Numbered from the stretch's first letter, positions 3,916 to 57,047 are shown. The stretch is 64,000 nt of DNA from Thermoplasmata archaeon (GCA_034667685.1 JAXDQU010000079.1:33891-97890), one strand, 5' to 3'. Notes: generated by a model from the letters alone, not told the origin. A program made the numbers and translations.

Positions 3916-4872
3916 CTACGCCTTCAGAACGTCGCGCGCCGCCTCCGCGATGTGCTGCCACGTCAGGCCGTACTTCTCCATGAGGTCGCGCTCCTCGCCC
4001 GATTCGCCGAAGGTGTCGCGCACGCCGATGCGGCGCACGGGGCACGGGTGGTTCTCGGCGACGACCTCGCAGACCGCGCTGCCCAGGCCGCCGTAGACCG
4101 AGTGCTCCTCGGCCGTGACGATGCCCTTGGTCTCGCGCGCGGCGGCGAGGATCGCGTCCTTGTCGATGGGCTTGACCGTGTGGATCAGCACGACGCGCGG
4201 GTCGGCGCCCTCGGCCACGAGCGCGTCGGCGGCGCGCATCGTCTCGTACACCATCGTGCCGCAGCCGATGAGCGTGATATCACGGCCCTCGCGCAGCGTG
4301 ATGGCCTTGCCGATCTCGGTGTCGTAGACCTGCGGCAGGAGCGCGGTGTCGCCGCGCGGCAGGCGCACGTAGGCCGGCCCGGGCGTCTCGGCCACGAGGC
4401 GGATGATGTCGCTGGTCTGCGGCCCGTCCGCTGGGACGAAGACGCGCATGTTGGGGAGGCCGCGCATCAGCGAGATGTCCTCGAGCATCTGGTGCGTCGC
4501 GCCGTCGCCGCCCACGCTGATGCCGCTGTGCGTGGCGACGATCTTGACGGGGAGGTTGGCGTACGCGATCGACTGGCGGATGACGTTGTAGGGCTGGCCC
4601 GTGGCGAACGCGGCGAACGTGCTCGCGAAGACGGTCTTGCCCGCGGCGGCGAGGCCCGCGGCCACGCCCATGAGGTTCAGCTCCGCGATGCCCATGTCGA
4701 AGAAGCGATCGGGGTACATCGTGCCGAAGCGCTTCGTCTTCGTCGAGAGCGCGAGGTCGGCGTCGAGCACGACCACGTTGGGGTTCGTGCGGCCCAGCTC
4801 GATGAGCGCCTGCGCGTAGGCGTCCTTGAGCGCCATGCGCGGCTGGTCGGGCTTCGTGAGGGTGGCGCTCAT
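3916..4872 (-). CDS. Transketolase, C-terminal subunit
   Basis: MSATLTKPDQPRMALKDAYAQALIELG...pyrimidine-binding and C-terminal domains. Start taken at the Met 141 codons into ORF 3916..5292. ATGA overlap with the upstream subunit gene. Confidence 0.9.
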   Translation of the reverse strand: MSATLTKPDQPRMALKDAYAQALIELGRTNPNVVVLDADLALSTKTKRFGTMYPDRFFDMGIAELNLMGVAAGLAAAGKTVFASTFAAFATGQPYNVIRQSIAYANLPVKIVATHSGISVGGDGATHQMLEDISLMRGLPNMRVFVPADGPQTSDIIRLVAETPGPAYVRLPRGDTALLPQVYDTEIGKAITLREGRDITLIGCGTMVYETMRAADALVAEGADPRVVLIHTVKPIDKDAILAAARETKGIVTAEEHSVYGGLGSAVCEVVAENHPCPVRRIGVRDTFGESGEERDLMEKYGLTWQHIAEAARDVLKA

Positions 4873-5753
4873 TGCGCGACCACCGCCTGGGGGGCGAGCG
4901 CCGCGCGACGCTGCGCGAGCCGCATCTTGCTGATGTCGAACTCGGTGTGCGCCTTGACGAGCTCGTCCTTGCTGGGCGCCTTGCCGTGGAACGATAGCGT
5001 GCCTTCCATGTAGCTGACGCCCTTGCCCTTGACCGTGTGCGCGATGATCATCGTGGGGCGGCCAGTGACGCGCTGCGCCTTCTCGAGCGCGCCGAGGATC
5101 TCCTCGTAGTTGTGGCCGTCGATCTCCAGCACGTGCCAGCCGAACGCGCGCCAGCGCTCGGCGGCGGGCTCGACGCTCATGATCTCCTCGGTGGGCCCGT
5201 CGATCTGCAGGCCGTTGCGGTCCAGGATGCCCACGAGGTTGTCCAGGCGGTAGTGGCTCGCGGCCATCGCCGCCTCCCAGATCTGGCCGCACTGGTTCTC
5301 GCCGTCGCCGATGATGCAGTAGACGCGGTGCCTGCTCCCATCGATCTTGCCCGCGAGCGCCATGCCCACGGCGCCCGAGAGGCCCTGCCCCTCGCTGCCG
5401 CCGTTGAACTCGACGCCCGGCGTCTTGTTGATGTCAGGGTGGCCCTGGAGCCGGCTGTTGATCTTGCGCAGGGTCTTCAGCCACTCCTCGGGGAAGTAGC
5501 CCTGCTTGGCGAGCACCGCGTAGAGCGCCGGGCAGCAGTGCCCCTTGCTCATGATGACGCGGTCGCGCTTCTCCCACTTCGGGTTCGAAGGGTCGTGCCG
5601 CATCTGCTCCCAGTAGAGGCAGGTGAGGACGTCGATGATGCCCAACGAGCCGCCCGGGTGCCCCGAGCCGGCCTCGTAGATCATGTCGATGATGCTGCGG
5701 CGAAGCTCCAGAGCCGTGTCTTCCAGCTCGAGCAGGCGCTCCTGCGTGACCAA
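4869..5753 (-). CDS. Transketolase, N-terminal (TPP-binding) subunit
   Basis: LELRRSIIDMIYEAGSGHPGGSLGIIDVL...GDGENQCGQIWEAAMAASHYRLDNL. TTG start preceded by AGGAGA, chosen because the upstream ORF extension has no homology. A split tkt is typical of archaea. Confidence 0.88.
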   Translation of the reverse strand: MVTQERLLELEDTALELRRSIIDMIYEAGSGHPGGSLGIIDVLTCLYWEQMRHDPSNPKWEKRDRVIMSKGHCCPALYAVLAKQGYFPEEWLKTLRKINSRLQGHPDINKTPGVEFNGGSEGQGLSGAVGMALAGKIDGSRHRVYCIIGDGENQCGQIWEAAMAASHYRLDNLVGILDRNGLQIDGPTEEIMSVEPAAERWRAFGWHVLEIDGHNYEEILGALEKAQRVTGRPTMIIAHTVKGKGVSYMEGTLSFHGKAPSKDELVKAHTEFDISKMRLAQRRAALAPQAVVAQ

Positions 5754-5925
5754 TGCAACCAGTCTCCTTGCGGCCGGGGCGCTGGGTGGCTCGGTCGGCC
5801 CATCGAAGGGCGGCTTTGCCGTGCCCTGGCGGCACGCTGCGCTACACGGGGTCGCTACATGAACGTTCCGCGCGAGGCGCGGCCTAGCCACCAACGTTTT
5901 GCGCGGCAAGCGCTTCCGACCCGCC

Positions 5926-7302
5926 ATGTCGGAGACGAGCGCCACCGCGGGCACGCTGCGAATCGGGCGGCTGCTCCTCCCCGCGGGGCGCTCGCTTCCC
6001 GCGGACGCCTGGGAGGCGCGCCACCGTGGCGTCCTCTACCTGCTCGCGGCGCACGCGGCGGGGCTCGCGGCCTTCGGCGTGGCGCTCGGGTGGCCCGCGT
6101 GGCACGCGATGCTCGAAGGCGGGCTCGTCGCGGCCATCGGCATCGTCGCGGCACAGCGGCGGCTCTCGCGGCGCGCGCGGAGCGTCGTGGCGTCGTTCGG
6201 CCTCATGTCGTGCTCGGCGATCCTCGTTCACCTCTCGGGCGGCTACATCGAGGCGCACTTCCACTTCTTCGTCATGCTGGGCGTCGTCTTCCTCTACGAG
6301 GATTGGCTCCCCTACGTGCTCGCGGTGGGCTTCGTCGCGATCCACCACGGCGTGGTCGGCACGCTCGACCCGCACAGCGTGTTCAACCACCCCTCCGGCA
6401 TCTCGGACCCGTGGGTGTTCGCCCTCATCCACGCGCTCTTCATCCTTGGGCTCTCCGCCGCGCTGCTGGTCGCCTGGAACGCGATCGAGCGCGCCCGCCT
6501 CTCCGAGCAGGACGCCCTCGGCAAGGCGGACGAGATGAAGCGCCAGCTCCAGCTCCACGAGAAGATGGCGGCCCTCGGAAGCCTCGTCTCGGGGCTCGCG
6601 CACGAGGTCCGCACGCCGCTGACCGTCGTCGCCACGAGCGCCGCCATCCTCGAGGCCGGCGCGCGGCGCGACCCGGGCAACCCGATGTCGGGGCGCGTCC
6701 TCTCGCAGGCGGAGGAGATCCGCGTCAGCGTCGACCGCATCAACGCCCTCGTCGCGCAGCTCCGGAGGTTCCACACGCTGGCCCCGGAGGAGATGCGCGT
6801 CGGGCCGCTCGACCCCGTGGTGCGGGAGGCCGTGAGCCTCTTCGCGCGCGTCAACCGCCACGCGCGCGCCCTGTCGCTGGAGATCGAGGACACGAGCCCG
6901 GCGCGCCTCCATCCGCTCGGCGTGCACCAGGTCGTGCTCAACCTGCTCTCGAACGCCGTCGAGGCGACCAGCGCGGAGACGGGGCGCATCGTGGTGCGCA
7001 CGCGCAGCGAGCCGGGCCACGCCGTGCTGGAGATCGAGGACAACGGCTGCGGGATGGACGAGCGCGCGCGGCAGAAGGCGTTCGATCCACTCTTCACGAC
7101 GAAGCCGGACGGGATGGGACTCGGGCTGCACATCGTGCGCCGCATCGTCGAGGCGCACGAGGGCTCGGTCTCGGTCGTCAGCCAGCCGGGCCGGGGGACG
7201 ACGTTCACGCTGCGCTTCCCGGTCGCGGCGCCCAGCGTGGCGTCGGATGCGTCCAGCCAGGTGCCCGTGCGCGCCCCGTCGCCGGGCGCGGCCGCGAGCT
7301 AG
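5926..7302 (+). CDS. Sensor histidine kinase with an N-terminal multi-TM sensor, HisKA and HATPase_c domains
   Basis: Five or six TM helices, then H-box LAHEVRTPL, N-box NLLSNAVEA and G-boxes DNGCGMD / GMGLGL. No response regulator nearby. Confidence 0.85.
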   Translation: MSETSATAGTLRIGRLLLPAGRSLPADAWEARHRGVLYLLAAHAAGLAAFGVALGWPAWHAMLEGGLVAAIGIVAAQRRLSRRARSVVASFGLMSCSAILVHLSGGYIEAHFHFFVMLGVVFLYEDWLPYVLAVGFVAIHHGVVGTLDPHSVFNHPSGISDPWVFALIHALFILGLSAALLVAWNAIERARLSEQDALGKADEMKRQLQLHEKMAALGSLVSGLAHEVRTPLTVVATSAAILEAGARRDPGNPMSGRVLSQAEEIRVSVDRINALVAQLRRFHTLAPEEMRVGPLDPVVREAVSLFARVNRHARALSLEIEDTSPARLHPLGVHQVVLNLLSNAVEATSAETGRIVVRTRSEPGHAVLEIEDNGCGMDERARQKAFDPLFTTKPDGMGLGLHIVRRIVEAHEGSVSVVSQPGRGTTFTLRFPVAAPSVASDASSQVPVRAPSPGAAAS

Positions 7303-8348
7303 AACTGCGCCTTCGCGCCCGTCAGCGCGACGCCCGCGGAGGGCACGCCGATCCCGCTGCCGGCCTCGACGCGCCCGACGCGCTGCGCGGGGAAGTGCTT
7401 GGCGAGGATGGCGACGGCGCGCTCGGCGTGCTCGGGCGCGACGATCACGCACAGGCCCATGCCCATGTTGAAGGTGCGCCACATCTCGTCCTCCGCGACG
7501 TGGCCCCAGCGCTGGACCGCGCGCAGGACCTCGGGCACCGGGAGGGGCGCGTCGATCACGTAGCGCACGTCCTTCTTGAGGCGCGGGACGTTGAGGAGGC
7601 CGGAGCCGGTGACGTGGCTGATGCCGTGCACTGCGCCGTGCGGCAGGGCCGATAGCAATTCGAGCGCGGCGCGCACGTAGATGCGGGTGGGCGCGAGCAG
7701 CGCCTCGCCGACGGTCTGGCCCGAGGGGAGCTTGTCGTCGAGCTTGACGCCCGCCTTCTCCATCGCGCGGCGGATGAGCGTGTAGCCGTTGCTGTGCGGG
7801 CCGCTGGAGGCGACGCCGACCATGATATCACCCGGCGCGATGGCGGCGCCCGAGACGATGCGGTCCTTGCGCACGACGCCCAGCACGGTGCCCGCGAGGT
7901 CGAAGCCCTTGACGAGCGAGGGAAGGACGGCCGTCTCGCCGCCCACGATGGTCATGTTGCTCTGGCGCGCGCCCTCGTTGAGGCCCTTCGCCAGCTCCGC
8001 GACGAGATGCGGGTCGGGCTTGTCGATGGCGAGGTAGTCCACGAACGCGATCGGCTCGGCGCCCACGCACACGGCGTCGTTGACGTTCATCGCGACGCAG
8101 TCGATGCCCACGGTGTCCCACTTGCGCATCGCGTTGGCGATCTCGAGCTTGGTGCCCACGCCGTCGGTGGCCAAGACCAGCGCGTGCTCGCCGAACTCGA
8201 CCATGCCCGCGAAGTGGCCCGCGCCGCCCAGCGGCCGGCCCATGCCGGTGCGCGCGTAGGAGAGGAGCCCGACCATCGCCTTCGCGGCCTCGTCCTTGGC
8301 CTGGATGTCCACGCCCGCGCCCGCGTAGGTCAGCGGCTCGTCCTTCAT
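7299..8348 (-). CDS. purM: Phosphoribosylformylglycinamidine cyclo-ligase (AIR synthetase)
   Basis: Full-length PurM match: MKDEPLTYAGAGVDIQAKDEA...GVGTKLEIA...SGPHSNGYTLIRR. Confidence 0.95.
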   Translation of the reverse strand: MKDEPLTYAGAGVDIQAKDEAAKAMVGLLSYARTGMGRPLGGAGHFAGMVEFGEHALVLATDGVGTKLEIANAMRKWDTVGIDCVAMNVNDAVCVGAEPIAFVDYLAIDKPDPHLVAELAKGLNEGARQSNMTIVGGETAVLPSLVKGFDLAGTVLGVVRKDRIVSGAAIAPGDIMVGVASSGPHSNGYTLIRRAMEKAGVKLDDKLPSGQTVGEALLAPTRIYVRAALELLSALPHGAVHGISHVTGSGLLNVPRLKKDVRYVIDAPLPVPEVLRAVQRWGHVAEDEMWRTFNMGMGLCVIVAPEHAERAVAILAKHFPAQRVGRVEAGSGIGVPSAGVALTGAKAQF

Positions 8349-8373: not shown

Positions 8374-9216
8374 TCAAGGCTTCGGCGCCGGTTGCCCGAG
8401 GTGACCCGCGGGCTCGCGCCTCGACTGCCGCCAGCGCAGCACGACGCCCACGCCCAGCGAGACGCACGCCGCGAACGCGAGGCAGGCCAGCGTGCCCCAG
8501 AGGATGCCCAACGCGGGATAGGCGAACGCGATGGCGACGCCGAAGAGCGCCGGCGCCGCGGTGCCCGCGACCATGACGCGCACGGTCGCGCCGGTGAAGT
8601 CCGCGCCGCGCTTGCGCGTGAGGATGACCATCGTCGTGATGAATCCGCTCGGGAAGACGCTGGCGAGCCCGCCGAGGATCGGGCCGCCGTAGTGCGCCAC
8701 GACGATGCTGCCCGCGACGACGGCGCCCGCGCCCGCCGCGCGCCCCGCGAGCTTCCACCACGAGAGGGGCGCGGGGCGCGCGGGTGGCGCGGCGTGGACC
8801 CGCGGCAGCCGCGCCAGCAGCAGGAGCGCCACGACCGCGCTCAAGGCCCAGAGCGGGAACGACCAGGCGAGCCCCGCGGGGAGCCACAGCACGATCGCGA
8901 GGCCCGCCGCGGCCCAGAGCGCGAGCGCCGCAGCGATGGCGGGCCAGGGCGCGAGGCGGCGCACGAGCAGCGCGGTGGCCGCGATGAAGACGACGTTGGC
9001 CGCCATCCCGGCCGGGGTCGCGGTGGCGCTCTGCGCGGCGAAGGCGACGCCCTCGTTCAACGCGATGAGGACCAGCGAGACCGTGACCTTCACGGGGAAT
9101 GATAGCAGCAGGCCGCCCACGCGCGGGTTGCCACGCTCGGCGATCGTCGTGAACGCGGCGACGGTCCCTCCGCCCACGAGGAAGGAGAGCGCCAGGCGCG
9201 CCAGGTAGGCGTCCAC
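8374..9216 (-). CDS. Integral membrane protein, hypothetical, about 8 TM
   Basis: Hydrophobic helices throughout. No conserved motif recognised. Confidence 0.5.
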   Translation of the reverse strand: MDAYLARLALSFLVGGGTVAAFTTIAERGNPRVGGLLLSFPVKVTVSLVLIALNEGVAFAAQSATATPAGMAANVVFIAATALLVRRLAPWPAIAAALALWAAAGLAIVLWLPAGLAWSFPLWALSAVVALLLLARLPRVHAAPPARPAPLSWWKLAGRAAGAGAVVAGSIVVAHYGGPILGGLASVFPSGFITTMVILTRKRGADFTGATVRVMVAGTAAPALFGVAIAFAYPALGILWGTLACLAFAACVSLGVGVVLRWRQSRREPAGHLGQPAPKP

Positions 9217-14512: not shown

Positions 14513-14539
14513 TAAGGAACGGGCCACAGGCTCGAAGCC

Positions 14540-14812
14540 ATGCCGCGCGCGGCGACCTCCGGAGGAGATTCAAGCCAACCTCGTCGGCCGAGGAAGGACG
14601 TGGCCAGCGTCATGAAGAAGGTCCGCGTCACGCCGCAGGAGGCGCGCACCCTCGCCCGCCTCGCGAAGCGCCAACGGAAGACGGAGAGCCAGGTCCTGCG
14701 CGAGGCGCTCGCGCGCGCGGACCTGCTGCAACGGCGCGCTGAGGCCGTCGAGAAGCTCATCGCCATGATCGAGGACCCCAAGCCCAAGCGCGTGCCGTGG
14801 GGCCTCCGATGA
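14540..14812 (+). CDS. vapB: Ribbon-helix-helix (CopG/VapB-like) antitoxin
   Basis: KKVRVTPQEARTLARLAKRQRKTESQVLREALA is an RHH fold. An alternative start at the Met of MKKVRV (14612) is possible. Confidence 0.6.
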   Translation: MPRAATSGGDSSQPRRPRKDVASVMKKVRVTPQEARTLARLAKRQRKTESQVLREALARADLLQRRAEAVEKLIAMIEDPKPKRVPWGLR

Positions 14813-15647: not shown

Positions 15648-16232
15648 TCAGAGCCGGCCGACGCGGGCGTGCCAGGCACGCGCCCCACCCTCGTGCATGC
15701 GCGAGAGGAAGCGCGCCGGCTCGACGGACTCCACGCGCCAGCCCTCGCGGAACGCCTGGTCGATCTCCTCGCGGCGGATCCTGCGCGGCCCGAGCGGGCC
15801 GGGCTCGGCGTCGCTGAAGCAGAGCAGGAGGAGCCTGCCGCCGGGCGCCAGCGCGTCGTGGAGGCTGCGCACGTATCGCGCGCGCTCCGCGTCGTCGAAC
15901 ACGTGGAAGAGGCCCGCGTCGACCGCGATATCAAAGTGCTGGTCGAGGCGCGCGAGGTCCAGCGCGTCGCCCACGACGAAGCGCGCCGCGAGCCCCCGCG
16001 CGGCGGCCTTGGCGCGCGCCTGCGCGATGGCGAGGTCGACGCCGTCCACGCCCCACGCCTCGTGCCCAAGCTGGGCGAGGAGCGCATGCTCGCCCGTGCC
16101 GCAGCCCACGTCGAGGACGCGCTGGCGCGGCGGGAGCGCGCGCAGGTCGGCGGCGAGCGCGGGCTGCGGCGCGCCGATGTCCCAGGGCGCGCCGCCCGAC
16201 TCGTAGGCGGGGCGGAACCGGTCCACGCTCAC
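15648..16232 (-). CDS. Class I SAM-dependent methyltransferase
   Basis: VLDVGCGTGEHALL (motif I) ... FDIAVDAGLFHVF ... GGRLLLLCF. GTG start overlaps the stop of the upstream Elp3 gene. Confidence 0.75.
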   Translation of the reverse strand: MSVDRFRPAYESGGAPWDIGAPQPALAADLRALPPRQRVLDVGCGTGEHALLAQLGHEAWGVDGVDLAIAQARAKAAARGLAARFVVGDALDLARLDQHFDIAVDAGLFHVFDDAERARYVRSLHDALAPGGRLLLLCFSDAEPGPLGPRRIRREEIDQAFREGWRVESVEPARFLSRMHEGGARAWHARVGRL

Positions 16233-17803: not shown

Positions 17804-17863
17804 GCCGCGCCCAGGCCGTTCCTGCCAGAAAAGGTATGCTGCCGCGCCGGGAAGGACGCCACG

Positions 17864-18151: not shown

Positions 18152-18813
18152 GCAAGGGGCCCCAGCGACTCCGCGAAGCCGCGCGAGAGCGTCTCCACGA
18201 GCTTCTCGCGCGAGACGCGCACGCCCTCCTCCGCGAGGCTCGTGACGCGCGTCGTGATATCGCCAGGAGGCGTGCGGAAGAGCCGCGCCATGCGGTCCTC
18301 GTCGCGCTCCACGATGACCGTGCCGTGCTGGAGGAGCGCCTTGCCGTCGCGCCGCTGCGCCCCGCCGCTGATCTTGCGCCCGTTCACCACGACGTTCGTC
18401 CCCTGCCTGCGCACGTAGCAGAGCGTCTCGCGCGTGTTGTCGGGCACCGTCTCGATCTGCGCGGGGAGGCCCAGGTGCCGCAGCGCGCGCACCACGCCGT
18501 CCGACACGAACGCGAACGAGCCGGTGATATCACGGGGGAGCCCCGGGTGGTCGAGCGGCAGCACGACGGCGTACGTGACCTCGCTCTCGTTGTGCAGGAT
18601 CGCGCCCCCGCCCGTCGCGCGGCGCACGACGTCGAGCCCCCAGGCGCGCGCGGCGTCGAGGTCGACGTCGGCCTCCGTCTGCGAGCGCCCCAGGCTCACC
18701 GCGGCCGGGCGCCAGCCGTACAGGCGCACCGTCGGCGCGCCCTCCGCGAGCAGCGCCTCGTCGCGCGCCATGTTCTCCCGCGCAGGAAGGGGGGCGTCCA
18801 GGAGGAGGCGCAT
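18148..18813 (-). CDS. Lipoate-protein ligase A / octanoyltransferase catalytic domain (BPL/LPL family)
   Basis: RKISGGAQRRDGKALLQHGTVIV has the ligase lysine motif. It is adjacent to lipoyl synthase. Start taken at MRLLLDAPLP. Confidence 0.75.
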   Translation of the reverse strand: MRLLLDAPLPARENMARDEALLAEGAPTVRLYGWRPAAVSLGRSQTEADVDLDAARAWGLDVVRRATGGGAILHNESEVTYAVVLPLDHPGLPRDITGSFAFVSDGVVRALRHLGLPAQIETVPDNTRETLCYVRRQGTNVVVNGRKISGGAQRRDGKALLQHGTVIVERDEDRMARLFRTPPGDITTRVTSLAEEGVRVSREKLVETLSRGFAESLGPLA

Positions 18814-18899
18814 GCGGGCCCACGAGGCGGGTCCGACCAAGAAGTTTCCTCAAGCCCGGCCACCAGAACGGCCAAGAGCGCGCACCTTGTGGCACGGAC

Positions 18900-32303: not shown

Positions 32304-32527
32304 TATCGGAGGCCAACGGCCCACCGAAGGGCGTATCCTCCCGAAGCGCCGAGGCGCCAGCATGACGCGCAGGATGGAGGACGCGCTGGTCGCCAGCGCC
32401 ATCGGCCTGCTGCTCTTCGCCGCGCTCTGGAACGCGCCCGTCGCCGCGCTCCTGAGCATCCTCGTGCTCGCCTGGACGCTGGCCCGCGAAAGCACGCGCG
32501 GACGCGCGAGGCCGAAGGGTTAGCGCC

Positions 32528-41051: not shown

Positions 41052-42203
41052 TCAGGCACGCGCGGCCTTCGCCGTCGCCTCGACCGCGCGGTCCACCTGC
41101 GCTTCGTCCACGACCAGGGGCGGGAGATAGCGGATCGTCGTCGCCCCGGTGGGAAGGGTGAGCACGCCCTCGGCCATCAGCGCGTTGAGGACCGGCACGT
41201 TGCGGCTGCGCAGCTCCAGCCCGACCATCAGGCCGCGGCCGCGCACCTCGCGCGCCCCCTCGCCCGCCGCGCGCGCCAGGCCGTCCAGGAGGCGCGGGCC
41301 CAGCTTCGCGGCGCGCTCGGCGAGACGCTCCTCGGCGATGACATCAAGGACCGCGAGGCCGGCCGCGCAGGCGAGCGGCGAGCCGCCGAACGTGTTGCCG
41401 TGCGCGCCGGTGGGCAGCTTCGCGGCGTCGTCGGTCAGGAGCACGCCGCCCATCGGGATGCCCGCCGCGACGCTCTTCGCGAAGCAGAGGATATCAGGGG
41501 CGACGTTCTCCTGCTGGCAGGCCCAGAAGCTGCCGGTGCGCGCGAAGCCCGTCTGGATCTCGTCGAGGACGAGCAGCGCGCCGGCATCGTGCGCGATGTC
41601 GGCCGCCGCGCGCAGGTAGCCGGGCGGAGGGACCTGCACGCCGCCCTCGCCCTGGATCGGCTCGAGGACCACGGCGGCGGTCTGCGACGTGACGGCGGAC
41701 TTCAGCTCCTCCTCGCTCCCGTACGTGACGTGCGTCACCGGCTCCAGGAGCGGGAGGAACGGCTCGCGGTACTCCGCCTTGTGCGTGAGCGAGAGCGCGC
41801 CGAACGTCCGGCCGTGGAACGCGCGCTTCGTGGCGACGAACCCGCTGCGGCGCGTCGTGCCGCGGGCGAACTTGAGCGCAGCCTCGATGGCCTCCGTCCC
41901 GCTGTTCGCCAGGAAAGCACGCTCCAACCCACGCGGCGCGGTGGCGACGAGGCGCTCCAGGAAGAGCGCGCGCTGGTCGTTGTGGTACGTCTGGGGCAAG
42001 CCGATCAGCCGCCCCGCCTGCTCGCGGATCGCCTCGACGACCTTCGGGTGGCAGTGGCCCACGTTGCCCACGCCGTAGTTCGCGCCGAAGTCGAGGTACT
42101 CCCGCCCCTCCGCGTCCCACAGCCGCGCCCCCGCGCCGCGCATGATGCTGATGGGGCGCTTGGGGAAGACGCCCGACTCGCGGCGCTGCTCGATCGCCTT
42201 CAT
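41052..42203 (-). CDS. lysJ: Class III aminotransferase, [LysW]-aminoadipate semialdehyde / acetylornithine aminotransferase
   Basis: LDFGANYGVGNVGHCHP...LVLDEIQTGFARTG...FAKSVAAG (PLP lysine). Start MKAIEQ at 42203. Confidence 0.9.
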   Translation of the reverse strand: MKAIEQRRESGVFPKRPISIMRGAGARLWDAEGREYLDFGANYGVGNVGHCHPKVVEAIREQAGRLIGLPQTYHNDQRALFLERLVATAPRGLERAFLANSGTEAIEAALKFARGTTRRSGFVATKRAFHGRTFGALSLTHKAEYREPFLPLLEPVTHVTYGSEEELKSAVTSQTAAVVLEPIQGEGGVQVPPPGYLRAAADIAHDAGALLVLDEIQTGFARTGSFWACQQENVAPDILCFAKSVAAGIPMGGVLLTDDAAKLPTGAHGNTFGGSPLACAAGLAVLDVIAEERLAERAAKLGPRLLDGLARAAGEGAREVRGRGLMVGLELRSRNVPVLNALMAEGVLTLPTGATTIRYLPPLVVDEAQVDRAVEATAKAARA

Positions 42204-42214
42204 CTGGTCGGTGC

Positions 42215-43015
42215 TCAGCAAACGTGCGTGCCTCCTCCCTGGAGCGCGGCCGTGACGGGCGCGGCCGTGTTGGCCGTGGCGAAGACGATCCGCGGCACGC
42301 CAAGGTCGAGCGCCTCGCGCGCGCCGAGGATCTTCTTCTTGAAGCGCCCCTGCGCGAAGCCCTCGTAGCTCGCCAGCTCCGCGACAGGGATCGTGGGGAT
42401 GAGGGAGGCGGGATCGGCGACGTCGCGCAGCAGGCCGGCGACGTTGCTGAGGATCAGCAGGTGGCTCGCCCCGAGCGCGCCCGCGATCGCGGCGGCCGCG
42501 CGGTCCGCGTCGGCGTTCACGGCCTCGCCCGCGGTGCTGATGGCGGGCACGGTGACCACCGGGAGATAGCCGTTTGATAGCAGCAGCCGCAGCAGGCCCG
42601 CGTTCACCGTCTCGATGGTGCCGGTGTGGTCGCCGCGCAGCATGACCTTCTTGCCGTCCACGACGGCCTTGATCGCCTCCTTGCGCTGGCCTTCGAGCAG
42701 GCGCCCGTCGACGCCCGTGAGCCCGACCGCGTTGCAGCCGCGCTTCTGGAGCGACTCGACGACGCGCAGGTTGAGCTTGCCGCTCGCCATCGCGAACGCG
42801 TCGAGCGTCGCCGCGTCGGTGAAGCGCGAGACGTGGCCGCTCGCGGACGTCACGAAGCGCGGCGGGATGCCGAGCTTCTCCGAAAGCTGGTTCGTCTCGT
42901 CGCTCGCGCCATGCACGAGGACGACGCGCTCGCCGTCCTTCCACATCTGTGCGACGTCGGCGAGGACGGCCTCGACGTCGATGCCGGCGCCGCCGCCCAC
43001 TTTCACGACGATCAT
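42215..43015 (-). CDS. lysZ: [LysW]-aminoadipate/glutamate kinase (amino-acid kinase family)
   Basis: MIVVKVGGGAGID...VLVHGASDE...VNADADRAAAAIAGAL. Confidence 0.85.
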   Translation of the reverse strand: MIVVKVGGGAGIDVEAVLADVAQMWKDGERVVLVHGASDETNQLSEKLGIPPRFVTSASGHVSRFTDAATLDAFAMASGKLNLRVVESLQKRGCNAVGLTGVDGRLLEGQRKEAIKAVVDGKKVMLRGDHTGTIETVNAGLLRLLLSNGYLPVVTVPAISTAGEAVNADADRAAAAIAGALGASHLLILSNVAGLLRDVADPASLIPTIPVAELASYEGFAQGRFKKKILGAREALDLGVPRIVFATANTAAPVTAALQGGGTHVC

Positions 43016-43036
43016 GACGTCGCCCTCCGACCCAGT

Positions 43037-43127: not shown

Positions 43128-43148
43128 CCGCGAAGCGTGGAAGCGCGC

Positions 43149-45040: not shown

Positions 45041-46183
45041 TCAGATCACCTTCACAAGCTCGCGCATGGCGCAGAGGTCCTCGTGGATCCTCCTGAGATC
45101 GTCGTCGCTCGCGTCGTTGACGTGGCGGCGCTTGACGTAGGCGAGCACGAGGTCCACGATCTCGTCGCTCGCGTCCAGGCCCAGCGCCTCCAGGCGGTGC
45201 TTCACGGTGGGGCGCCCCGCCATCTTGTCGACCACGAGCCTCCGGGTGCGGCCGACGAGGTCGGCGGGGATGCTCTCGTAGTGCTGCGGGTTGAGCAGCA
45301 CCGCCGCGACGTGGAGCCCCGCGTTGTGCGTGAACGCGTTCGCGCCGACGATGGGCGCCTGCCGCCACGTCGGGATGCCGCTGGCGCGCTCCACCTGCTC
45401 CGAGAGCGCGGGGAGGCGCTCCAGCCTCCAGTTTGCCTCCACCTCCCCGCGCAACCGGAGCGCCACCGCCATCTCCGCCAGGGGCGCGATGCCGGTGCGC
45501 TCGCCCAGGCCGTTGACCGTGACGTCGACGACGCTCGCGCCGGCCTCCACGGCGGCGAACGAGTTGGCGACGGCCATGCCCAGGTCGTTGTGGCAGTGGA
45601 CGCCGATCGCGGTCCGGCTCGGCACGGCCTCCCGCAGCGCCGAGACGAAGCTGAACATGCGCGAAGGCGTCATGTGCCCGGTGGTGTCCGCGACCCCGAT
45701 GCGGTCCGCGCCGGCCTCCGAGGCGGCGTTCGAGATGCGGATCACCTTCGCCAGGTCGGAGCGCACCGTGTCCTCGGGCGTGTAGCGCACCTTCAGGCCG
45801 TGGGCCTTCGCGTACGCCACGCAGTCCTGGATCAGCGAGATCGCCTGGTCGATGTCCTTGCGGAACTGCTCCTCCAGGCGCTTGTCCGCGACGCTGAAGA
45901 AGATGCCGACCCAGTCCGCCTCCGTCTTGAGGACCAGGTCGATATCACTCTTCAGCGCGCGCGAGTGCGCCACGATCTCCGCGTCGAGGCCCAGCCGCGC
46001 GACCTCCCGCGTCGCGCGGAAGACCTCGTCGGAGACCGCGGGGTGCCCCGCCTCGATGAAGTCGATGCCGAACGCGTCCAGCTCCCGCGCGATGGCGAGC
46101 TTCTGCTCCAGCGTGAACGACACGCCGGGCGTCTGCTCGCCCTCACGCAGGGTGCTATCAAGGAGCTGGACGCGCCGCGCCAT
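45041..46183 (-). CDS. Homocitrate synthase (HCS / 2-isopropylmalate synthase family)
   Basis: LLDSTLREGEQTPGV...HCHNDLGMAVANS. The LysW cluster context favours homocitrate over isopropylmalate synthase. Confidence 0.8.
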   Translation of the reverse strand: MARRVQLLDSTLREGEQTPGVSFTLEQKLAIARELDAFGIDFIEAGHPAVSDEVFRATREVARLGLDAEIVAHSRALKSDIDLVLKTEADWVGIFFSVADKRLEEQFRKDIDQAISLIQDCVAYAKAHGLKVRYTPEDTVRSDLAKVIRISNAASEAGADRIGVADTTGHMTPSRMFSFVSALREAVPSRTAIGVHCHNDLGMAVANSFAAVEAGASVVDVTVNGLGERTGIAPLAEMAVALRLRGEVEANWRLERLPALSEQVERASGIPTWRQAPIVGANAFTHNAGLHVAAVLLNPQHYESIPADLVGRTRRLVVDKMAGRPTVKHRLEALGLDASDEIVDLVLAYVKRRHVNDASDDDLRRIHEDLCAMRELVKVI

Positions 46184-46184
46184 C

Positions 46185-47902: not shown

Positions 47903-47951
47903 GATCATTCCCGCCCGCTCGATCTGGAAAGGCTCGCTGAGCTTCGGCCTC

Positions 47952-48698: not shown

Positions 48699-49594
48699 AG
48701 GTCGCGATCCAGGGCCAGCAGGTGGAGCTGTCGAACCTCGACAAGGTGCTCTATCCGCAGGCCGCCTTCACGAAGGCGCACGTCATCGACTACTACCGGC
48801 GCGTCTCCCCCGCCCTCCTGCCCCACCTGCGCGATCGGCCCGTGACGCTGAAACGATATCCCGACGGCGTCGAGGGGAAGTTCTTCTACGAGAAGTCGTG
48901 CCCGCCCTACCGCCCGGCGTTCGTGCGCACGGCGCCGGTCTGGAGCGAGGGGCGCGGCGAGGACATCGACTACTGCGTGCTCGACACGCTGCCCGCGCTC
49001 GTGTGGGCCGCGAACCTCGCCGACCTGGAGATGCACACGTTCCTGCACACCGCGCCCGACGTCGCGCGCCCCCACGCGCTCGTCTTCGACCTCGACCCGG
49101 GCCCGGGGACCGACATCGTGGACTGCGCGCGGCTCGGCCTGCGCGTGCGCGACCTCTTCGAGGGCTTCGGCCTCGCCTGCCTCGCCAAGACGTCGGGCAG
49201 CAAGGGCTTGCAGGTGTACGCGCCGCTCAACACCCCCGCTTCCTACGAGGAAACGAAACCGTTCGCGCGTGCCGTGGCCGAGATGCTGGAGCGCGAGACG
49301 CCCGCGACGGTGACGAGCAACATGAGCAAGGCCGAGCGCGCGGGCCGCGTGCTGGTCGACTGGTCGCAGAACGACGCCCACAAGACGACCGTGTGCGCCT
49401 ACTCGCTTCGCGCCAAGGCGCAGCCGACCGTCAGCACGCCCGTCACGTGGGAGGAGATCGCGCGCTGCGCGTCGGAGGGCAAGGCGGACCTGCTGCGCTT
49501 CCTGACGGAGGACGTGCTGGAGCGCGTGGAGACGCACGGCGACCTGTTCCGGCCCGTCCTCGACCTCGAGCAGGCGCTGCCGGCGCTTGCCTAG
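48695..49594 (+). CDS. LigD polymerase/primase domain (stand-alone PolDom)
   Basis: KFFYEKS...LVFDLDPGPG...SGSKGLQVYAPL: archaeo-eukaryotic primase fold of NHEJ PolDom. ATGA overlap with ku. Confidence 0.85.
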   Translation: MKVAIQGQQVELSNLDKVLYPQAAFTKAHVIDYYRRVSPALLPHLRDRPVTLKRYPDGVEGKFFYEKSCPPYRPAFVRTAPVWSEGRGEDIDYCVLDTLPALVWAANLADLEMHTFLHTAPDVARPHALVFDLDPGPGTDIVDCARLGLRVRDLFEGFGLACLAKTSGSKGLQVYAPLNTPASYEETKPFARAVAEMLERETPATVTSNMSKAERAGRVLVDWSQNDAHKTTVCAYSLRAKAQPTVSTPVTWEEIARCASEGKADLLRFLTEDVLERVETHGDLFRPVLDLEQALPALA

Positions 49595-49671: not shown

Positions 49672-49716
49672 CGGAGCGCCGCGCCGACACACTTCATATC
49701 CTTGGCCGACCCGACC

Positions 49717-51141
49717 GCGCGCTCGATGCGCGACGGGTTCTCGGCTGGGGTTTGCGTCGATCTGGGTGCGTTCGATCCGACGCAGGAGGACGCCGGCGCC
49801 GGCGCGTGGCTCTCGCGCGCGCAGGGCGTCCCCACGTGGGTCTGCCTCATGGAGGACCGCCAGCCCGTCTTCTTCCACGAGTACCGGGGCTACGAGCCGG
49901 ACGCCGTCGCGCCGCTCAACCGCCACGGGCCGAACAAGCATGCGTGGCGCCAGGCGGACGTGCGCCGGCTCGTCGCCGCCTTCCACGCGCTGGGCGTGAA
50001 GGTGCTCTACGGCTACTGGCTCCACGAGTGCGCGTGGGTCGACCAGCGCCACCCCGAGCTCCTCATCCGCGACCAGCACGGCGCGCTCTGGCAGGACGAG
50101 GTCGAGATGAACGCCGACTTCTCCCCGCTGCGGCGCCTGCGCGCGGATCCCGAGCACGACGTGCGCGAGGGCGAGCGCTACGCCGCCTGGAGCGCGCGGC
50201 GGTACGCGCAGCTCGCCCGCGACTTCGGCTTCGACGGGCTCTTCCTGGGCGACGGCGGCATGGGCTTCCGGCGTCACGGCAAGGACTGGAAGGACCTGCG
50301 CCACTTCGACTTCCACGAGGACTGGACCGCCGAGCTCGCCGCCGACCACGCGTTCGAGCGGCACGCCGGCTGCAAGGTCGGCTCCGCGGACGCCGAGGAG
50401 CGCGCCCATGATATCAAGGCGCACCACTGGGAGCACTGGGTCGCGTTCAACTGCGAGCGCTGGACCGCGTACTACCGCGACGTGGCGGAGGCCGTGCACG
50501 CGACGGGCGGCGTCCTCGCGGCGTACAACTGCATGAACTACGACCCCGCGCTCGCGCGGCTCCACGGCGTCGACTACCGCGGCATCGCCGAGTCGGGCCT
50601 TGACATCATGGTCTTCCAGGCGTACGACTATGCGTGGGGACCGCTGGGGCCGTTCGGCTTCCTGCACATCGCGCGCAAGGACAACGCGACGAACCTCGCC
50701 GCGCTCCTGCGCACGCGCGCCGCCATCGGCCACGACACGCCCATGCGCCTCGTCGTGACGGTGGAGACGGAGGACGAGGTCGAGGGGTGGGACGCTCCCG
50801 CGTGCCACACGCTGGGCGAGCTGCACGCGCTGGGCCACGCGGTCTCGTACGACGGCGAGCGCTGGCGCCGCGCGGCGGACGGCGCGTTCGTCGTGTGGGG
50901 CAACTCGGTCCCCGCCCCCGAGTGGCGCGGCCTCGCCGACGCCTTCGCGCAGCTCTCCGCCGACCCGCCCGTGCCGGTCGCGTCGATGCGCTACGACGAG
51001 CGCGAGGCGCACGCGCACGCCGCGGACGTGCCCGCCGAGGTCGAGCCGGAGGCGCTCTACGCGCACCTGGACGGCCAGCGCGGCTACGCCATCACGCGCG
51101 TCGCGGCCCCGCCGCTCGCCATCCGGCCCGCGCGGCGCTGA
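49717..51141 (+). CDS. Hypothetical protein, possibly a glycoside-hydrolase-like TIM barrel (GHL10/DUF4015-like)
   Basis: 474 aa, Trp/His-rich (YGYWLHECAWVD, DGLFLGDGG). Weak family assignment. Confidence 0.5.
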   Translation, partial: ARSMRDGFSAGVCVDLGAFDPTQEDAGAGAWLSRAQGVPTWVCLMEDRQPVFFHEYRGYEPDAVAPLNRHGPNKHAWRQADVRRLVAAFHALGVKVLYGYWLHECAWVDQRHPELLIRDQHGALWQDEVEMNADFSPLRRLRADPEHDVREGERYAAWSARRYAQLARDFGFDGLFLGDGGMGFRRHGKDWKDLRHFDFHEDWTAELAADHAFERHAGCKVGSADAEERAHDIKAHHWEHWVAFNCERWTAYYRDVAEAVHATGGVLAAYNCMNYDPALARLHGVDYRGIAESGLDIMVFQAYDYAWGPLGPFGFLHIARKDNATNLAALLRTRAAIGHDTPMRLVVTVETEDEVEGWDAPACHTLGELHALGHAVSYDGERWRRAADGAFVVWGNSVPAPEWRGLADAFAQLSADPPVPVASMRYDEREAHAHAADVPAEVEPEALYAHLDGQRGYAITRVAAPPLAIRPARR

Positions 51142-54459: not shown

Positions 54460-56277
54460 GTGCCCACTCACCGCGCGCCCGTGCCCACCACCGCCCGGAG
54501 CCTTCTTGCGACCGTCCGGGAGCGCGCGATCGCGGACCACGGCGCGGTGGGCGACGGGCGCAGCGTCGCGCTGCTCGCCAGCGACGGCACGCTCGACTGG
54601 TGGTGCCCCGGCCGCTTCGACGCGCCCAGCGCGTTCGGCGCGATCCTGGACGCGGAGCGCGGCGGCCACTTCCGCCTCGGGCCCACGGTGGAGGCCGCCA
54701 GCCTGATGCGCTACGTCTCCGACACGAACGTGCTCGAGACGCTCCACACGACCCGCGCCGGGCGCGTGCGCGTCTGCGACTTCATGCCCTTCCCCGACGA
54801 GAGCGGCGTCGAGGACGCGGTGCTCGTCCGCCGCGTGGAGGGCATCGAGGGCACGGTCGAGCTGGCGCTCTCCTTCCAGCCGCGCTTCGCCTACGGGCAG
54901 GTGACGCCGCGCCTCTCGCGCACGCCCGCCGGCCTGCTCGCGCGGGGCGCCGGCGAGATCATGCTGCTCCAGGCGCCCGAGGCGATCTGCGCGCCCGAGG
55001 CCCGCGTCCTGGTCGGCGAGGGCGAGCGCTTCGACGTCATGCTGCGGCACCGGCCCTTCGACGCGCCCGTGCCGTTCGACGCGCCGCTGGCCGCCTCCCC
55101 CGCGCGGCTGGAGGCGAAGACCGTCGCGCGCTGGCGGGCGTGGAGCGCGCAGACGCGCTTCGAGGGCCCCGAGGCGCCCATGGTCCGCCGCAGCGCGCTC
55201 GCGCTCAAGCTCCTCCAGTACGCGCCCACCGGCGCACTCGTGGCGGCGCCCACGACCAGCCTGCCCGAGGGGATCGGCGGCGTGCGCAACTGGGACTACC
55301 GGTTCGCGTGGCTGCGCGACGCGGCGCTCTGCGCGAAGGCGCTCCAGGACGTCGGGCACGCCGAGGAGGCGCAGCGCTTCACGCGCTGGGTCGAGGCGAC
55401 GCTGCGCGACCCGGCCGACATGCGCGTGATGTACACCGTCTCGGGGCAGAGCGACCTCGACGAGCGCGAGCTGCCCCACCTGCGCGGCCACCGCGCCAGC
55501 GCGCCCGTCCGCGTCGGCAACGGCGCGGCCACGCAGCGCCAGCTCGACGTCTACGGCGAATTGCTCGGCTACCTGCGCGAGTCGGGCACCGCCGGCGCCG
55601 CGACGTGGCCCCTGGCGCGCGGCCTGGCCGACCACGTGGCGCGCACCTGGCGCGAGCCGGACAGCGGCATCTGGGAGATGCGCGCCGAGCCGCGCCACTT
55701 CGTGCTCAGCAAGGCGATGGCGTGGGTCGCGCTGACCTCCGCTGCCCAGATGGCGCGCGAGCAGGGGTTCGCCGGTGATATCACGGGCTGGGAGCGCGAG
55801 GCCGACGCGATCCGCGCGCAGGTCGAGCAGCAAGGCGTCGACGCCCGGCTGGGCTTCGTCCAGGCCTATGGCTTCGCCGCGCCCGACGCCTCGAACCTGC
55901 TCCTGCCCATCGTCGGCTTCGTGGACGCGCGCGACCCGCGCATGCTCGCCACGACGCGCGCCGTCCTCGACAAGCTCACCGCCAACGGCCTCGTCTACCG
56001 CTATCACAACGCGGACGGGCTGCCCGGCGGCGAGGCGACGTTCGCCTACTGCACGTTCTGGCTCGTCGAGGTGCTCGCCATGCAGGGCGAGACGCAGCAG
56101 GCGCGCCAGCTCTTCGAGGCGCTGCTCGCCCGCGCGACGCCCCTGGGCCTCTTCGCCGAGGAGATCGACGAGAAGACCGGCGAGCACCTGGGCAACTTCC
56201 CGCAGGGCTTCCCGCACGCGGGCCTGATCGCGGCTGCCTTGGCGCTCAAGCGCGCGGAAAGCTCCGCGCTCCGCTGA
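54460..56277 (+). CDS. Glycoside hydrolase family 15 (glucoamylase/trehalase-like, (alpha/alpha)6 barrel)
   Basis: GVRNWDYRFAWLRDAA...DSGIWEMR...GFVQAYGF. GTG start. Confidence 0.85.
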   Translation: MPTHRAPVPTTARSLLATVRERAIADHGAVGDGRSVALLASDGTLDWWCPGRFDAPSAFGAILDAERGGHFRLGPTVEAASLMRYVSDTNVLETLHTTRAGRVRVCDFMPFPDESGVEDAVLVRRVEGIEGTVELALSFQPRFAYGQVTPRLSRTPAGLLARGAGEIMLLQAPEAICAPEARVLVGEGERFDVMLRHRPFDAPVPFDAPLAASPARLEAKTVARWRAWSAQTRFEGPEAPMVRRSALALKLLQYAPTGALVAAPTTSLPEGIGGVRNWDYRFAWLRDAALCAKALQDVGHAEEAQRFTRWVEATLRDPADMRVMYTVSGQSDLDERELPHLRGHRASAPVRVGNGAATQRQLDVYGELLGYLRESGTAGAATWPLARGLADHVARTWREPDSGIWEMRAEPRHFVLSKAMAWVALTSAAQMAREQGFAGDITGWEREADAIRAQVEQQGVDARLGFVQAYGFAAPDASNLLLPIVGFVDARDPRMLATTRAVLDKLTANGLVYRYHNADGLPGGEATFAYCTFWLVEVLAMQGETQQARQLFEALLARATPLGLFAEEIDEKTGEHLGNFPQGFPHAGLIAAALALKRAESSALR

Positions 56278-56372: not shown

Positions 56373-56453
56373 TTTCTCCGCCGGAGGCGGCCGAGGCCGA
56401 GCCTCATGCAGCGCGCCAGAAGGGTCATCCACAGCGGGGCGGCTGCCCCGCGC

Positions 56454-56732
56454 ATGGCGACGATGCAGTGGCCCAAGGGCTGGAACGTGAGCGCGGACGG
56501 CAAGCGCGTCGAGACCAAGGTCGAAACAGAGGACTTCCTCGCCGCGATGAAGCTCTTGAATGACCTCGCGCCCGTGGCGGAGAAGCTGGAGCACCACCCC
56601 GACCTGCACGTCGAGCAGTGGAACCACGTCCGCATCGTGAGCTACTCGCACGACGTCGGGCACCTCACGGAGCGCGACGAGAAGCTCGCCGCCGAGATCG
56701 AGAAGGTCCTGGCGAAGCACGGCCTTCGGTAG
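56454..56732 (+). CDS. Pterin-4a-carbinolamine dehydratase (PCD/DCoH)
   Basis: LEHHPDLHVEQWNHVRIVSYSHDVGHLTERDEKLAAEIE is the PCD signature. Start taken at MATMQW. Confidence 0.8.
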   Translation: MATMQWPKGWNVSADGKRVETKVETEDFLAAMKLLNDLAPVAEKLEHHPDLHVEQWNHVRIVSYSHDVGHLTERDEKLAAEIEKVLAKHGLR

Positions 56733-56765
56733 GGCTTTACACGCTCAGCGGGTGTTCCAGGCGCG

Positions 56766-57047
56766 ATGGCGGGGATCACGCTCACGCTGCCGCGCTCCTT
56801 GCGCGACTACTGGGCCGGGGACCCCGAGGTCCGCCTCGAGGCGAAGACGCTCGCCGAGGCGCTCGCGGAGGTGGGCCGCCGATGGCCCGGCCTCGCCGAG
56901 CGCATCCTCGACGACGCGGGCCGCGTGCGCCCGCACGTCGGCCTCTTCGTCAACGCGCTTCCGGTGATGCACCGCGACCCGCGCGAGGTCGGCCTGGCCG
57001 AGGGTGATATCATCCGCGTGCTGCCCGCCGTGAGTGGAGGATGCTGA
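56766..57047 (+). CDS. MoaD/ThiS-like ubiquitin-fold sulfur carrier (SAMP-like) ending in GGC
   Basis: MAGITLTLPRSLRDYWAG...EGDIIRVLPAVSGGC: beta-grasp pattern, with a C-terminal Gly-Gly followed by one extra Cys. Confidence 0.55.
   Translation: MAGITLTLPRSLRDYWAGDPEVRLEAKTLAEALAEVGRRWPGLAERILDDAGRVRPHVGLFVNALPVMHRDPREVGLAEGDIIRVLPAVSGGC

Follow-up and report, generated by a model that had tools for sequence, protein, structure and literature searches.

The DNA analysed here is a stretch of 64 kb from a Thermoplasmata archaeon – referred to below as the window – with a GC content of 72% along its whole length. Against this background, the AT-rich palindromic octamer TGATATCA occurs 12 times, about 90-400 times more often than expected, and every copy lies in coding sequence. 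Together with its variants, the octamer defines the consensus word T-G-(A/C)-T-A-T-C-A (TGMTATCA). We are highly confident that this word is a lineage-specific, highly iterated palindrome, which arose at the level of the DNA and has been written by substitution under a continuing directional force. The best explanation as a whole combines the iterated palindrome with a protein of this lineage that would read it, preferably a methyltransferase; it is plausible, with chances a little short of even.

Abundance of the palindrome

Genes were called heuristically from the GC content at third codon positions (GC3 frame score), which yields robust reading frames and approximate start codons. In the genes called from this signal, 96% of the third codon positions are G or C, and T accounts for only 2.2%. 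An exact count of the window gives 12 copies of TGATATCA and 21 of its core GATATC, as an earlier reading made from the sequence alone (the sequence-only reading) had reported together with an excess of about 100-fold; the shuffles described below expect 0.03-0.13 and 2.9-4.2 copies, respectively. Six of the site positions given in that reading are right, while the other six were off by 1-6 nt (the true starts are 7823, 18525, 29520, 33059, 55776 and 57005).

Dinucleotide-preserving shuffles yield 0.03 copies of TGATATCA and 2.87 of GATATC, and the observed counts were reached in none of 100 shuffles; a second-order Markov model predicts 0.029 copies of the octamer instead of 12. When synonymous codons are shuffled (2000 shuffles each), the expectation for TGATATCA is 0.04 with pooled codons and 0.13 within genes, compared to 11 copies in the called coding sequence; for GATATC, about 4.1 copies are expected and 19 observed. 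A codon-pair-preserving shuffle had been named beforehand as a possible refutation of the enrichment. With all in-frame GAT-ATC pairs frozen and the other codons shuffled, 0.41 copies of TGATATCA are obtained (maximum 3), again compared to 11, and the enrichment stands. Because the count exceeds both the codon and the frozen-pair null models, neither codon usage nor the Asp-Ile codon pair explains the word; chance or composition as its source is ruled out by the dinucleotide, synonymous-codon and frozen-codon-pair shuffles. According to a scan of every locus of at least 15 kb, TGATATCA in this lineage is the outstanding case among all 256 palindromic octamers. Its density amounts to one site per 5.2-5.6 kb (~190 per Mb).

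All 12 full sites belong to ordinary housekeeping genes and are read in the phase NNT-GAT-ATC-ANN; GATATC is read as GAT|ATC at 19 of 21 sites. The common phase, which the sequence-only reading had emphasized, is thus real, but it is no evidence by itself: a perfect palindrome of this kind is confined to a single phase because one of the other frames contains a TGA stop and another needs ATA, an Ile codon used only twice in 18,479 codons. The full sites, each a copy of TGATATCA, are as follows.

4275..4282: transketolase C-terminal subunit gene (3916-4872, minus strand), CGT GAT ATC ACG (R-D-I-T)
7823..7830: AIR-synthase-related gene (7299-8348, minus strand), GGT GAT ATC ATG (G-D-I-M)
18525..18532: lipoate-protein ligase gene (18148-18840, minus strand), CGT GAT ATC ACC (R-D-I-T); nearest relative has TGATATCG
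28512..28519: MacB/FtsX permease gene (27628-31080, plus strand), CTT GAT ATC ATC (L-D-I-I); relative has GGATATCA
29520..29527: MacB/FtsX gene, GAT GAT ATC ACC (D-D-I-T); relative has CGACCCCG (D-P-A), with different amino acids
30003..30010: MacB/FtsX gene, CTT GAT ATC AAC (L-D-I-N); relative has GGACATCG (D-I-A)
32108..32115: UbiA prenyltransferase gene (31317-32303, plus strand), TCT GAT ATC ATC (S-D-I-I)
33059..33066: FadB-like 3-hydroxyacyl-CoA dehydrogenase/enoyl-CoA hydratase gene (32640-34718, minus strand), TGT GAT ATC ATC (C-D-I-I)
33893..33900: FadB-like gene, GCT GAT ATC AGC (A-D-I-S); relatives have D-I-A or D-V-A
50409..50416: gene of 479 aa without Pfam match (49702-51141, plus strand), CAT GAT ATC AAG (H-D-I-K)
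55776..55783: GH15 glucoamylase/trehalase-like gene (54460-56277, plus strand), GGT GAT ATC ACG (G-D-I-T)
57005..57012: ThiS-family gene (56733-57047, plus strand), GGT GAT ATC ATC (G-D-I-I)

The codons around these sites depart from the usage of the window at three positions. Asp-Ile is encoded by GAC-ATC in 31 cases (instead of the roughly nine counted before) and by GAT-ATC in 18. Asp is hence written GAT before ATC in 18 of 49 cases, compared to 8.4% overall (P=4e-8), an extreme bias even with the corrected count. The codon preceding GAT-ATC ends in T in 15 of 18 cases, compared to 2.2% overall (P=1e-22); at the full sites, the preceding codons are cgT, ggT, ctT, gaT, tcT, tgT, gcT and caT, exactly as listed before. 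The codon that follows starts with A in 13 of 18 cases, compared to 17.6% overall (P=5e-7).

The three copies of the 12-mer GTGATATCACGG noticed in the sequence-only reading were located at 4273, 18523 and 55774; they fit common Gly/Arg...Thr codons. A motif longer than 8 bp was rejected, as positions -2 and +2 are not enriched (G at 10 of 24 half-sites vs 36% in the background). A likeness to the TGM half-sites of Thermococcales (GTGATA/TATCAC) was dropped for the same lack of any extension past 8 bp. Likewise, a mobile short repeat similar to repetitive extragenic palindromes (REP) or miniature inverted-repeat transposable elements (MITE) was discarded: the flanks are unrelated beyond 8 bp, and the sites lie in frame in conserved genes without indels relative to the orthologues.

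Variants and the degenerate consensus

All 6-, 7- and 8-mers were scanned against the codon-shuffle null model. Besides the palindrome itself, TGCTATCA and TGATAGCA – the two strands of a single one-off variant – occur five times (0.01 expected), and GATAGC/GCTATC occurs 20 times (4.3 expected). Among the internal one-offs at position 3, only the change from A to C is found, G and T being absent, and positions 2 and 7 are invariant in the one-off spectrum. One-offs in the flanking nucleotides amount to seven (1.5 expected), and the precursor-like TGACATCA occurs three times (0.55 expected). The consensus word is TGMTATCA. The five copies of the internal variant are:

9100..9107: TGATAGCA (= TGCTATCA), other frame, CTG CTA TCA (L-L-S), with the rare codons CTA and TCA
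39419..39426: TGCTATCA, M20 peptidase gene, sense GGT GAT AGC ACG (G-D-S-T)
39770..39777: TGCTATCA, sense GGT GAT AGC ATG (G-D-S-M)
42575..42582: TGATAGCA, amino-acid kinase gene, CTG CTA TCA (L-L-S)
46153..46160: TGCTATCA, homocitrate synthase gene, sense CTT GAT AGC ACC (L-D-S-T); relatives have CGACAGCA or CGACTCCA

Words of the GCTATC type occupy every frame and both orientations relative to the gene, being read as NGC-TAT-CNN, CTG-CTA-TCA and NNT-GAT-AGC-A. Their imprint on codon usage is evident: Tyr is written TAT in 11 of 29 cases within a GC|Tyr|C context and in 18 of 367 elsewhere (P=7e-7), five of the nine CTA codons in the window lie within G-CTA-TC, and two of the three TCA codons directly follow CTA. 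Because the variants appear in three frames and on both strands, the cause must be sought at the level of the DNA and not of the codon or peptide.

The tetramer TATC occurs 92 times on the two strands of the window; it is preceded by GA or GC in 63 cases, and 41 copies have a T three bases upstream, whereas the TATC contexts of the outgroups are diffuse. CGTATC and GGTATC are the commonest of these contexts in the outgroups (19-36%) and make up 4 of 92 in the window. The dominance of G(A/C)TATC may therefore reflect a depletion of other TATC contexts as well as enrichment.

The remaining near matches comprise flank one-offs and sites that retain the core only:

15926..15933: flank one-off CGATATCA, sense TTT GAT ATC GCG
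18255..18262: flank one-off TGATATCG, sense GGC GAT ATC ACG
21174..21181: core only, CGATATCG, AAC GAT ATC GCG; relative has CGACGTCG (Asp-Val)
21699..21706: flank one-off CGATATCA, CCC GAT ATC AAC
32301..32308: TGATATCG, with TGA as the UbiA stop codon, the sole use of the otherwise forbidden third frame
41489..41496: flank one-off GGATATCA, sense CCT GAT ATC CTC
45940..45947: flank one-off CGATATCA, sense AGT GAT ATC GAC; common to the relative L169 as TGATATCG (sense orientation)
48854..48861: core only and out of phase, CGATATCC, LigD primase-polymerase gene, CGA TAT CCC
61691..61698: flank one-off AGATATCA, acetyl-CoA synthetase gene, sense GAT GAT ATC TAC

One could imagine that the word is selected in translation or in the mRNA, either because a rare NNU-GAU pair before AUC acts as a programmed ribosome pause, or because UGAUAUCA serves as an RNA motif. 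Such selection would suit the occurrence of 12 out of 12 full sites in one phase, with two consecutive rare T-ending codons; this phase, however, is forced by the TGA stop and the need for ATA. The variant word is found in other frames and antisense, and the relative L170 (described below) uses GATATC in all three frames. Moreover, the first base of the next codon is constrained as well, the amino acids differ from those of the orthologues at some sites, and the effect is absent in sister lineages of the same codon bias. We consider this explanation extremely improbable; it is effectively refuted by the multi-frame, two-strand data, and the use of the variant in three frames and on both strands rules out a codon-pair explanation, too.

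Origin of the sites and effect on proteins

Orthologues were aligned for FadB, the UbiA-family gene, a 9-kb syntenic block in the related locus L163, and homocitrate synthase. The columns are collinear, and not a single indel was found at the sites. At the site columns, the relatives carry sequences such as CGACATCA, CGATATCA, CGACGTCG (Asp-Val), CGACCCCG (Asp-Pro-Ala) and GGAGCTGC (Glu-Leu). The word has not been brought in by insertion but formed on the spot, by point substitutions where the protein tolerates them. These changes include transitions and transversions, both synonymous and amino-acid-changing, and the presence of transitions together with transversions argues against a single mutational signature. 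At 33893, for instance, the final A of the word accompanies a change from Ala to Ser that is polarised by four outgroups.

The site at 33059 is the only full site common to the window and its nearest relative (L001); L003 and L004 have CGATATCA at this position and L002 has CGACATCA. Site turnover between the window and the nearest relative is high, and the permissive sites that were converted differ by lineage: L003 contains the full word at a position where the window keeps CGACATCA.

Most full sites encode X-Asp-Ile-(Thr/Ile/Asn/Ser/Lys/Met); some differ in amino acids from the orthologues, several of them conservatively. The shift is measurable in the proteome. The dipeptide Asp-Ile is found 49 times in the window (33 expected), and Asp-Ile followed by a codon starting with A 20 times (5.9 expected, P=4e-6). 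The corresponding numbers are 8 vs 3.4 expected for the nearest metagenome-assembled genome (MAG), 29 vs 36 for outgroup Thermoplasmatota, and 29 vs 33 for GC-rich bacteria. The full word occupies 11 of 20 permissive tripeptide sites in the window and 4 of 8 in the nearest MAG. This filling of about half of the permissive sites implies a force strong enough to fix amino-acid replacements, as well as an equilibrium between mutation and drive that is held against the GC pressure.

Could the word have arisen neutrally, without reader and without function, from a mutational hotspot that depends on sequence context, such as an off-target deaminase or C-to-T changes induced by methylation? Most sites can indeed be derived from the common precursor GAC-ATC by C-to-T changes at two third codon positions, and both the high turnover and the weak positional conservation suit such a process. 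Yet the two C-to-T changes take place in unrelated contexts (C|GAT and GA-C-ATC) and nevertheless converge on a perfect palindrome. Sites also arose from distant sequences by transversions and amino-acid changes (GGAGCTGC or CGACCCCG to TGATATCA; GCC to AGC), GCTATC is favoured in three frames, and amino-acid usage is shifted. A hotspot of this kind is therefore very unlikely. The sequence-only reading had proposed a cause at the DNA level, with flanking T and A that go beyond the choice of Asp-Ile codons; the failure of the null models, the multi-frame variants, the amino-acid-changing substitutions and the lineage specificity all support and strengthen it. As possible causes, that reading had named a methylation or restriction motif, a bias of repair, or a binding site.

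Distribution among relatives

The enrichment continues beyond the window. In 14.7 kb of flanking sequence from the same genome, two full sites and four one-off variants were found, namely two full sites and three variants in 8.6 kb on the right and one variant in 6.1 kb on the left; window and flanks together contain 14 full sites in 78.7 kb.

The nearest relatives of the FadB-like protein are encoded by Thermoplasmatota MAGs. The nearest MAG, GCA_021325135.1 (89% FadB identity), contains five full sites in 45 kb on two contigs and shows the same dominance of GATATC/GCTATC. L002 and L003 (78% identity) possess one full site each as well as half-sites, in 12.5 kb and 7 kb, respectively. The full word is absent from L004, from 21 kb each of L165 and L166 (82-84% identity in homocitrate synthase), and from GC-rich Thermoplasmatota and bacteria at a greater distance (316 + 369 kb, together about 685 kb). 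At the density of the window, finding no site in the 42 kb of L165 and L166 has a probability of P=5e-4. The word is lineage-specific.

The locus L170 (GCA_040960315.1; 3266-10977) presents a different picture: seven GATATC lie within 11.7 kb, without the T/A flanks, and they occupy all three frames with the help of very rare codons (ATA twice, AGA, TAT and CGA). This suggests a wider targeting of the core, with flank preferences that vary from lineage to lineage; L170 may belong to a sister lineage in which the 6-bp core alone is enriched.

Only four close metagenome loci were detected in a JGI scan, so the clade is rare. The sequence of the window is also present in JGI sample 3300044737, and contigs from another three samples match it at 99.995-100% identity; being so nearly the same, they carry no population signal on site polymorphism.

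Two observations on the related loci may be added. The nearest MAG (JAJPHT01; loci L001 and L163) is labelled 'Proteobacteria bacterium', yet its genes are closest to those of the window (protein identity of 89% for the FadB-like protein and 78% for the MacB/FtsX permease, the two that were compared), with 13 kb of synteny between the two; the label is probably wrong. In L007, from a Thermoplasmatales MAG of 70% GC, the AT-core palindrome CCTATAGG is enriched as well. It was set aside, as it traces back to one local 10-bp tandem repeat unrelated to the dispersed word: three tandem units at 14528-14555, each with CCTATAGG, in an intergenic region, possibly an operator.

A candidate mechanism and its alternatives

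We propose that a protein of this lineage reads the 8-bp word symmetrically on both strands and that it would not discriminate between A and C at position 3. The preferred candidate would be an amino-methyltransferase of the GATATC class (EcoRV/Dam-like) that flips out its target base; alternatively, a repair or nicking enzyme coupled to such a methyltransferase might be involved. Position 3 of the word corresponds to the adenine methylated by M.EcoRV in GATATC, and N6-adenine methyltransferases reportedly accept cytosine at the flipped target base. Such a reader protein would be expected to prefer TGATATCA, followed by TGCTATCA and then by the flank variants, other internal variants ranking far lower. 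The sites could have been built up by a methylation-linked ratchet of biased repair, after the proposal of Elhai for the highly iterated palindrome HIP1 of cyanobacteria, or selection may have favoured a genome in which modified sites are dense enough. A methyltransferase-linked mechanism behind the word is put forward tentatively, its chances being clearly below even.

Several findings weigh against this proposal. Among 40 open reading frames of the window, Pfam scans revealed no DNA methyltransferase, restriction enzyme or Vsr-like gene, the only methyltransferases being of small-molecule and rRNA (FtsJ) types. Genes of these three kinds are likewise missing from the Pfam annotation of L081, L163-L168 and L171, and a search for the amino-methyltransferase motif (D/N/S)PP(Y/F/W/H) and for 5-methylcytosine motifs gave nothing credible in about 190 kb of motif-bearing loci. 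The missing enzyme gene is weak evidence, because the sequence covered represents only a few percent of a genome. Furthermore, an ordinary DNA-binding protein could just as well account for the A/C degeneracy. Non-coding DNA makes up about 8.5 kb of the window, in which 1.6 full sites would be expected at equal density and none is seen; one copy of TGATATCG extends over a stop codon, and AGCTATCA is found once between genes. Finally, in about 12 kb of sequence orthologous between the two closest genomes, motif-associated A/T third positions are kept in 4 of 17 cases, compared to 11 of 110 for all other A/T third positions (Fisher P=0.12). Site positions are thus not clearly conserved, and the data do not establish the kind of site-by-site selection that has been reported for HIP1.

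An obvious alternative to a methyltransferase is a dimeric, sequence-specific protein that organises the chromosome or nucleoid and binds to the word, with selection acting on the density of sites (about one per 5-6 kb) and not on their positions. A symmetric dimer would suit a palindrome of 8 bp in which positions 2 and 7 do not vary and the central TA step is flexible. The window, its flanks and the nearest MAG have similar densities, and a high positional turnover at constant density is in keeping with selection on density. In addition, six of the 12 full sites are clustered within 5.4 kb (28512-33900, in the MacB/FtsX, UbiA and FadB-like genes; simulated P ~0.012), which may reflect either the supply of permissive sites or a local effect, and an architectural role has been proposed for HIP1 as well (Xu et al., PMC5861425). 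On the other hand, no candidate protein was identified, and an A/C-only degeneracy at one position is no obvious property of a helix-turn-helix dimer. The palindromic architectural sites parS, matS, SBS and NBS have lengths of 14-16 bp and occur in tens of copies per genome, as opposed to ~190 per Mb here. Such a binding site is an unlikely explanation.

A further proposal is that the word tags self-DNA for uptake or homologous recombination and was spread by molecular drive, similar to the DNA uptake sequence (DUS) and the uptake signal sequence (USS), to Chi, or to a recent proposal for HIP1. Origin in place, genic sites, altered peptides, little positional conservation and a narrow lineage range are hallmarks of uptake sequences, and one site per 5.2-5.6 kb comes close to the density of Chi in E. 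coli. However, known DUS, USS and Chi are non-palindromic, and USS and DUS are about five times denser. No archaeal uptake signal or Chi-like site is known, and the loci read revealed no genes for competence or conjugation. We rate this possibility as quite unlikely.

One may take the argument further and regard TGMTATCA as an independent and recent HIP-type 'watermark' in Archaea, which an enzyme or receptor of the lineage would drive into the chromosome, strongly enough to alter proteins on the way. The driver might be a methyltransferase that flips out its target base and is linked to a repair nuclease, or else a receptor that serves in the uptake or recombination of DNA. This wider claim is doubtful at present.

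Neighbouring genes and other features

Further features of the window and its surroundings are listed below.

569-1372, 1835-3127, 49702-51141 and 62622-63578: examples of several genes of 190-479 aa without Pfam match
14809-15174: gene with a PIN domain (toxin-like)
16229-18031: ELP3-like radical-SAM/GNAT gene
34873-34944 (minus strand): tRNA-Cys(GCA), the sole RNA gene in the window according to ARAGORN and Rfam
39312-46346: lysine biosynthesis operon of the LysW/LysX type
46574-49594 (minus strand): complete cluster of Ku, ATP-dependent DNA ligase and LigD primase-polymerase, i.e. bacterial-type non-homologous end joining (NHEJ)
2143-2457 of L164, about 7.5-8 kb past the right end of the window: gene of an HU/HTa-type bacterial DNA-binding protein (PF00216)

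NHEJ clusters are uncommon in archaea. The one described here adjoins the lysine operon, and this position is kept in L166 (6356-9486) and L169 (337-2521). HU/HTa is a typical chromatin protein of Thermoplasmata, and the protein encoded in L164 is probably not sequence-specific.

Significance

The hyper-abundance of palindromes such as HIP1 has awaited an explanation since 1993, and an independent archaeal case would show that the phenomenon is general. The case is useful in several respects: an AT-rich word is maintained at 96% GC3, it shifts amino-acid usage, and it is switched on or off between close relatives. A comparison of gene presence across bearer and sister lineages (about 80-85% protein identity) could identify the machinery, which 30 years of work on HIP1 have not. 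If a methyltransferase is responsible, a modification is predicted at position 3 of GATATC and GCTATC in long-read metagenomes. In practical terms, the word distorts analyses of codon usage, k-mer binning and selection in these MAGs.

Comparison with known systems

Among the known systems, the N6-adenine methyltransferases of the EcoRV/Dam family (targets GATATC and GATC) offer a first point of reference, since the core of the archaeal word is the EcoRV site and the A-to-C degeneracy falls on the adenine that is modified by M.EcoRV, as would suit an enzyme that flips out its target base. Targets of restriction-modification systems are normally avoided or neutral in their hosts, whereas the word described here is about 100-fold enriched and recognition would extend over 8 bp. 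No restriction avoidance is seen, as GATATC is enriched, too (21 vs 2.9-4.2 expected). In the Dcm/Vsr system of E. coli, methyltransferase-linked repair raises its own word, CCWGG at the expense of CTWGG, which corresponds to the ratchet model; the effect, however, is less than two-fold and restores C:G, while the archaeal drive is directed towards A:T and no Vsr-like gene was found in the sequence examined.

DUS (Neisseria) and USS (Pasteurellaceae) are likewise short, lineage-specific words that were raised by point mutation in genes and affect peptides. They are asymmetric, 9-12 nt long, occur about once per kb and have a known competence receptor, in contrast to a palindrome of 8 bp found once per 5.2-5.6 kb; TGATATCA lacks the defining features of these sequences. 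Nothing comparable is known from archaea. Chi resembles the archaeal word in being an 8-mer with about one site per 5 kb, mostly in genes. Chi and the FtsK-orienting polar sequences (KOPS) are asymmetric, co-oriented with replication and few-fold enriched, whereas the palindrome TGATATCA carries no orientation; as a perfect palindrome, the main word is not an oriented octamer of the Chi/KOPS type.

The closest parallel is HIP1 of cyanobacteria, i.e. GCGATCGC with its variants GGGATCCC, TCGATCGA and CAGGCCTG (Elhai 2015, PMC4390886; Xu, Lawrence and Durand 2018, PMC5861425). In HIP1, a resident methyltransferase recognises the core CGATCG, and a methylation-dependent mismatch-repair ratchet was proposed by Elhai (PMC4390886). 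Both words are palindromic octamers that consist of a 6-bp type II-like core with one nucleotide on each side, both are enriched by two orders of magnitude (HIP1 15-300-fold, the archaeal word about 90-400-fold), and both have spread by substitution without indels at sites inside genes. Enriched one-offs, a patchy distribution among relatives and a word that changes between lineages are common to the two as well. Of the defining features of HIP-type sequences, the archaeal word shows three: palindromic octamer, degree of enrichment and spread by substitution.

The differences concern, in the first place, the host, which is archaeal (Thermoplasmatota) instead of cyanobacterial, and the composition: the word is AT-rich although the genome, with 72% GC, presses in the opposite direction. 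At its highest density, HIP1 is 5-6 times more frequent than the archaeal word. One-offs at the first and last nucleotide, the main kind in HIP1, are enriched here as well (7 vs 1.5 expected), but the internal variant with C instead of A at position 3 is equally common (5 vs 0.01 expected), so that the word contains a degenerate A/C base. HIP1 also shows periodic spacing on a scale of 10-90 kb; within the 64 kb of the window, the local cluster of six sites in 5.4 kb is the only spacing pattern seen. For HIP1, site conservation above controls has been reported and a cognate methyltransferase of the core identified; here, conservation amounts to 4/17 vs 11/110 (P=0.12), and no such enzyme was found in the sequence examined. 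In the literature consulted, neither TGATATCA nor GATATC is mentioned as a word of unusual genomic abundance, and HIP-like palindromes are described only from cyanobacteria, none from archaea. What is new relative to HIP, then, is the domain of life, a word that opposes the composition of its genome, the internal degenerate base, the shift of the proteome, and a very recent and patchy origin.

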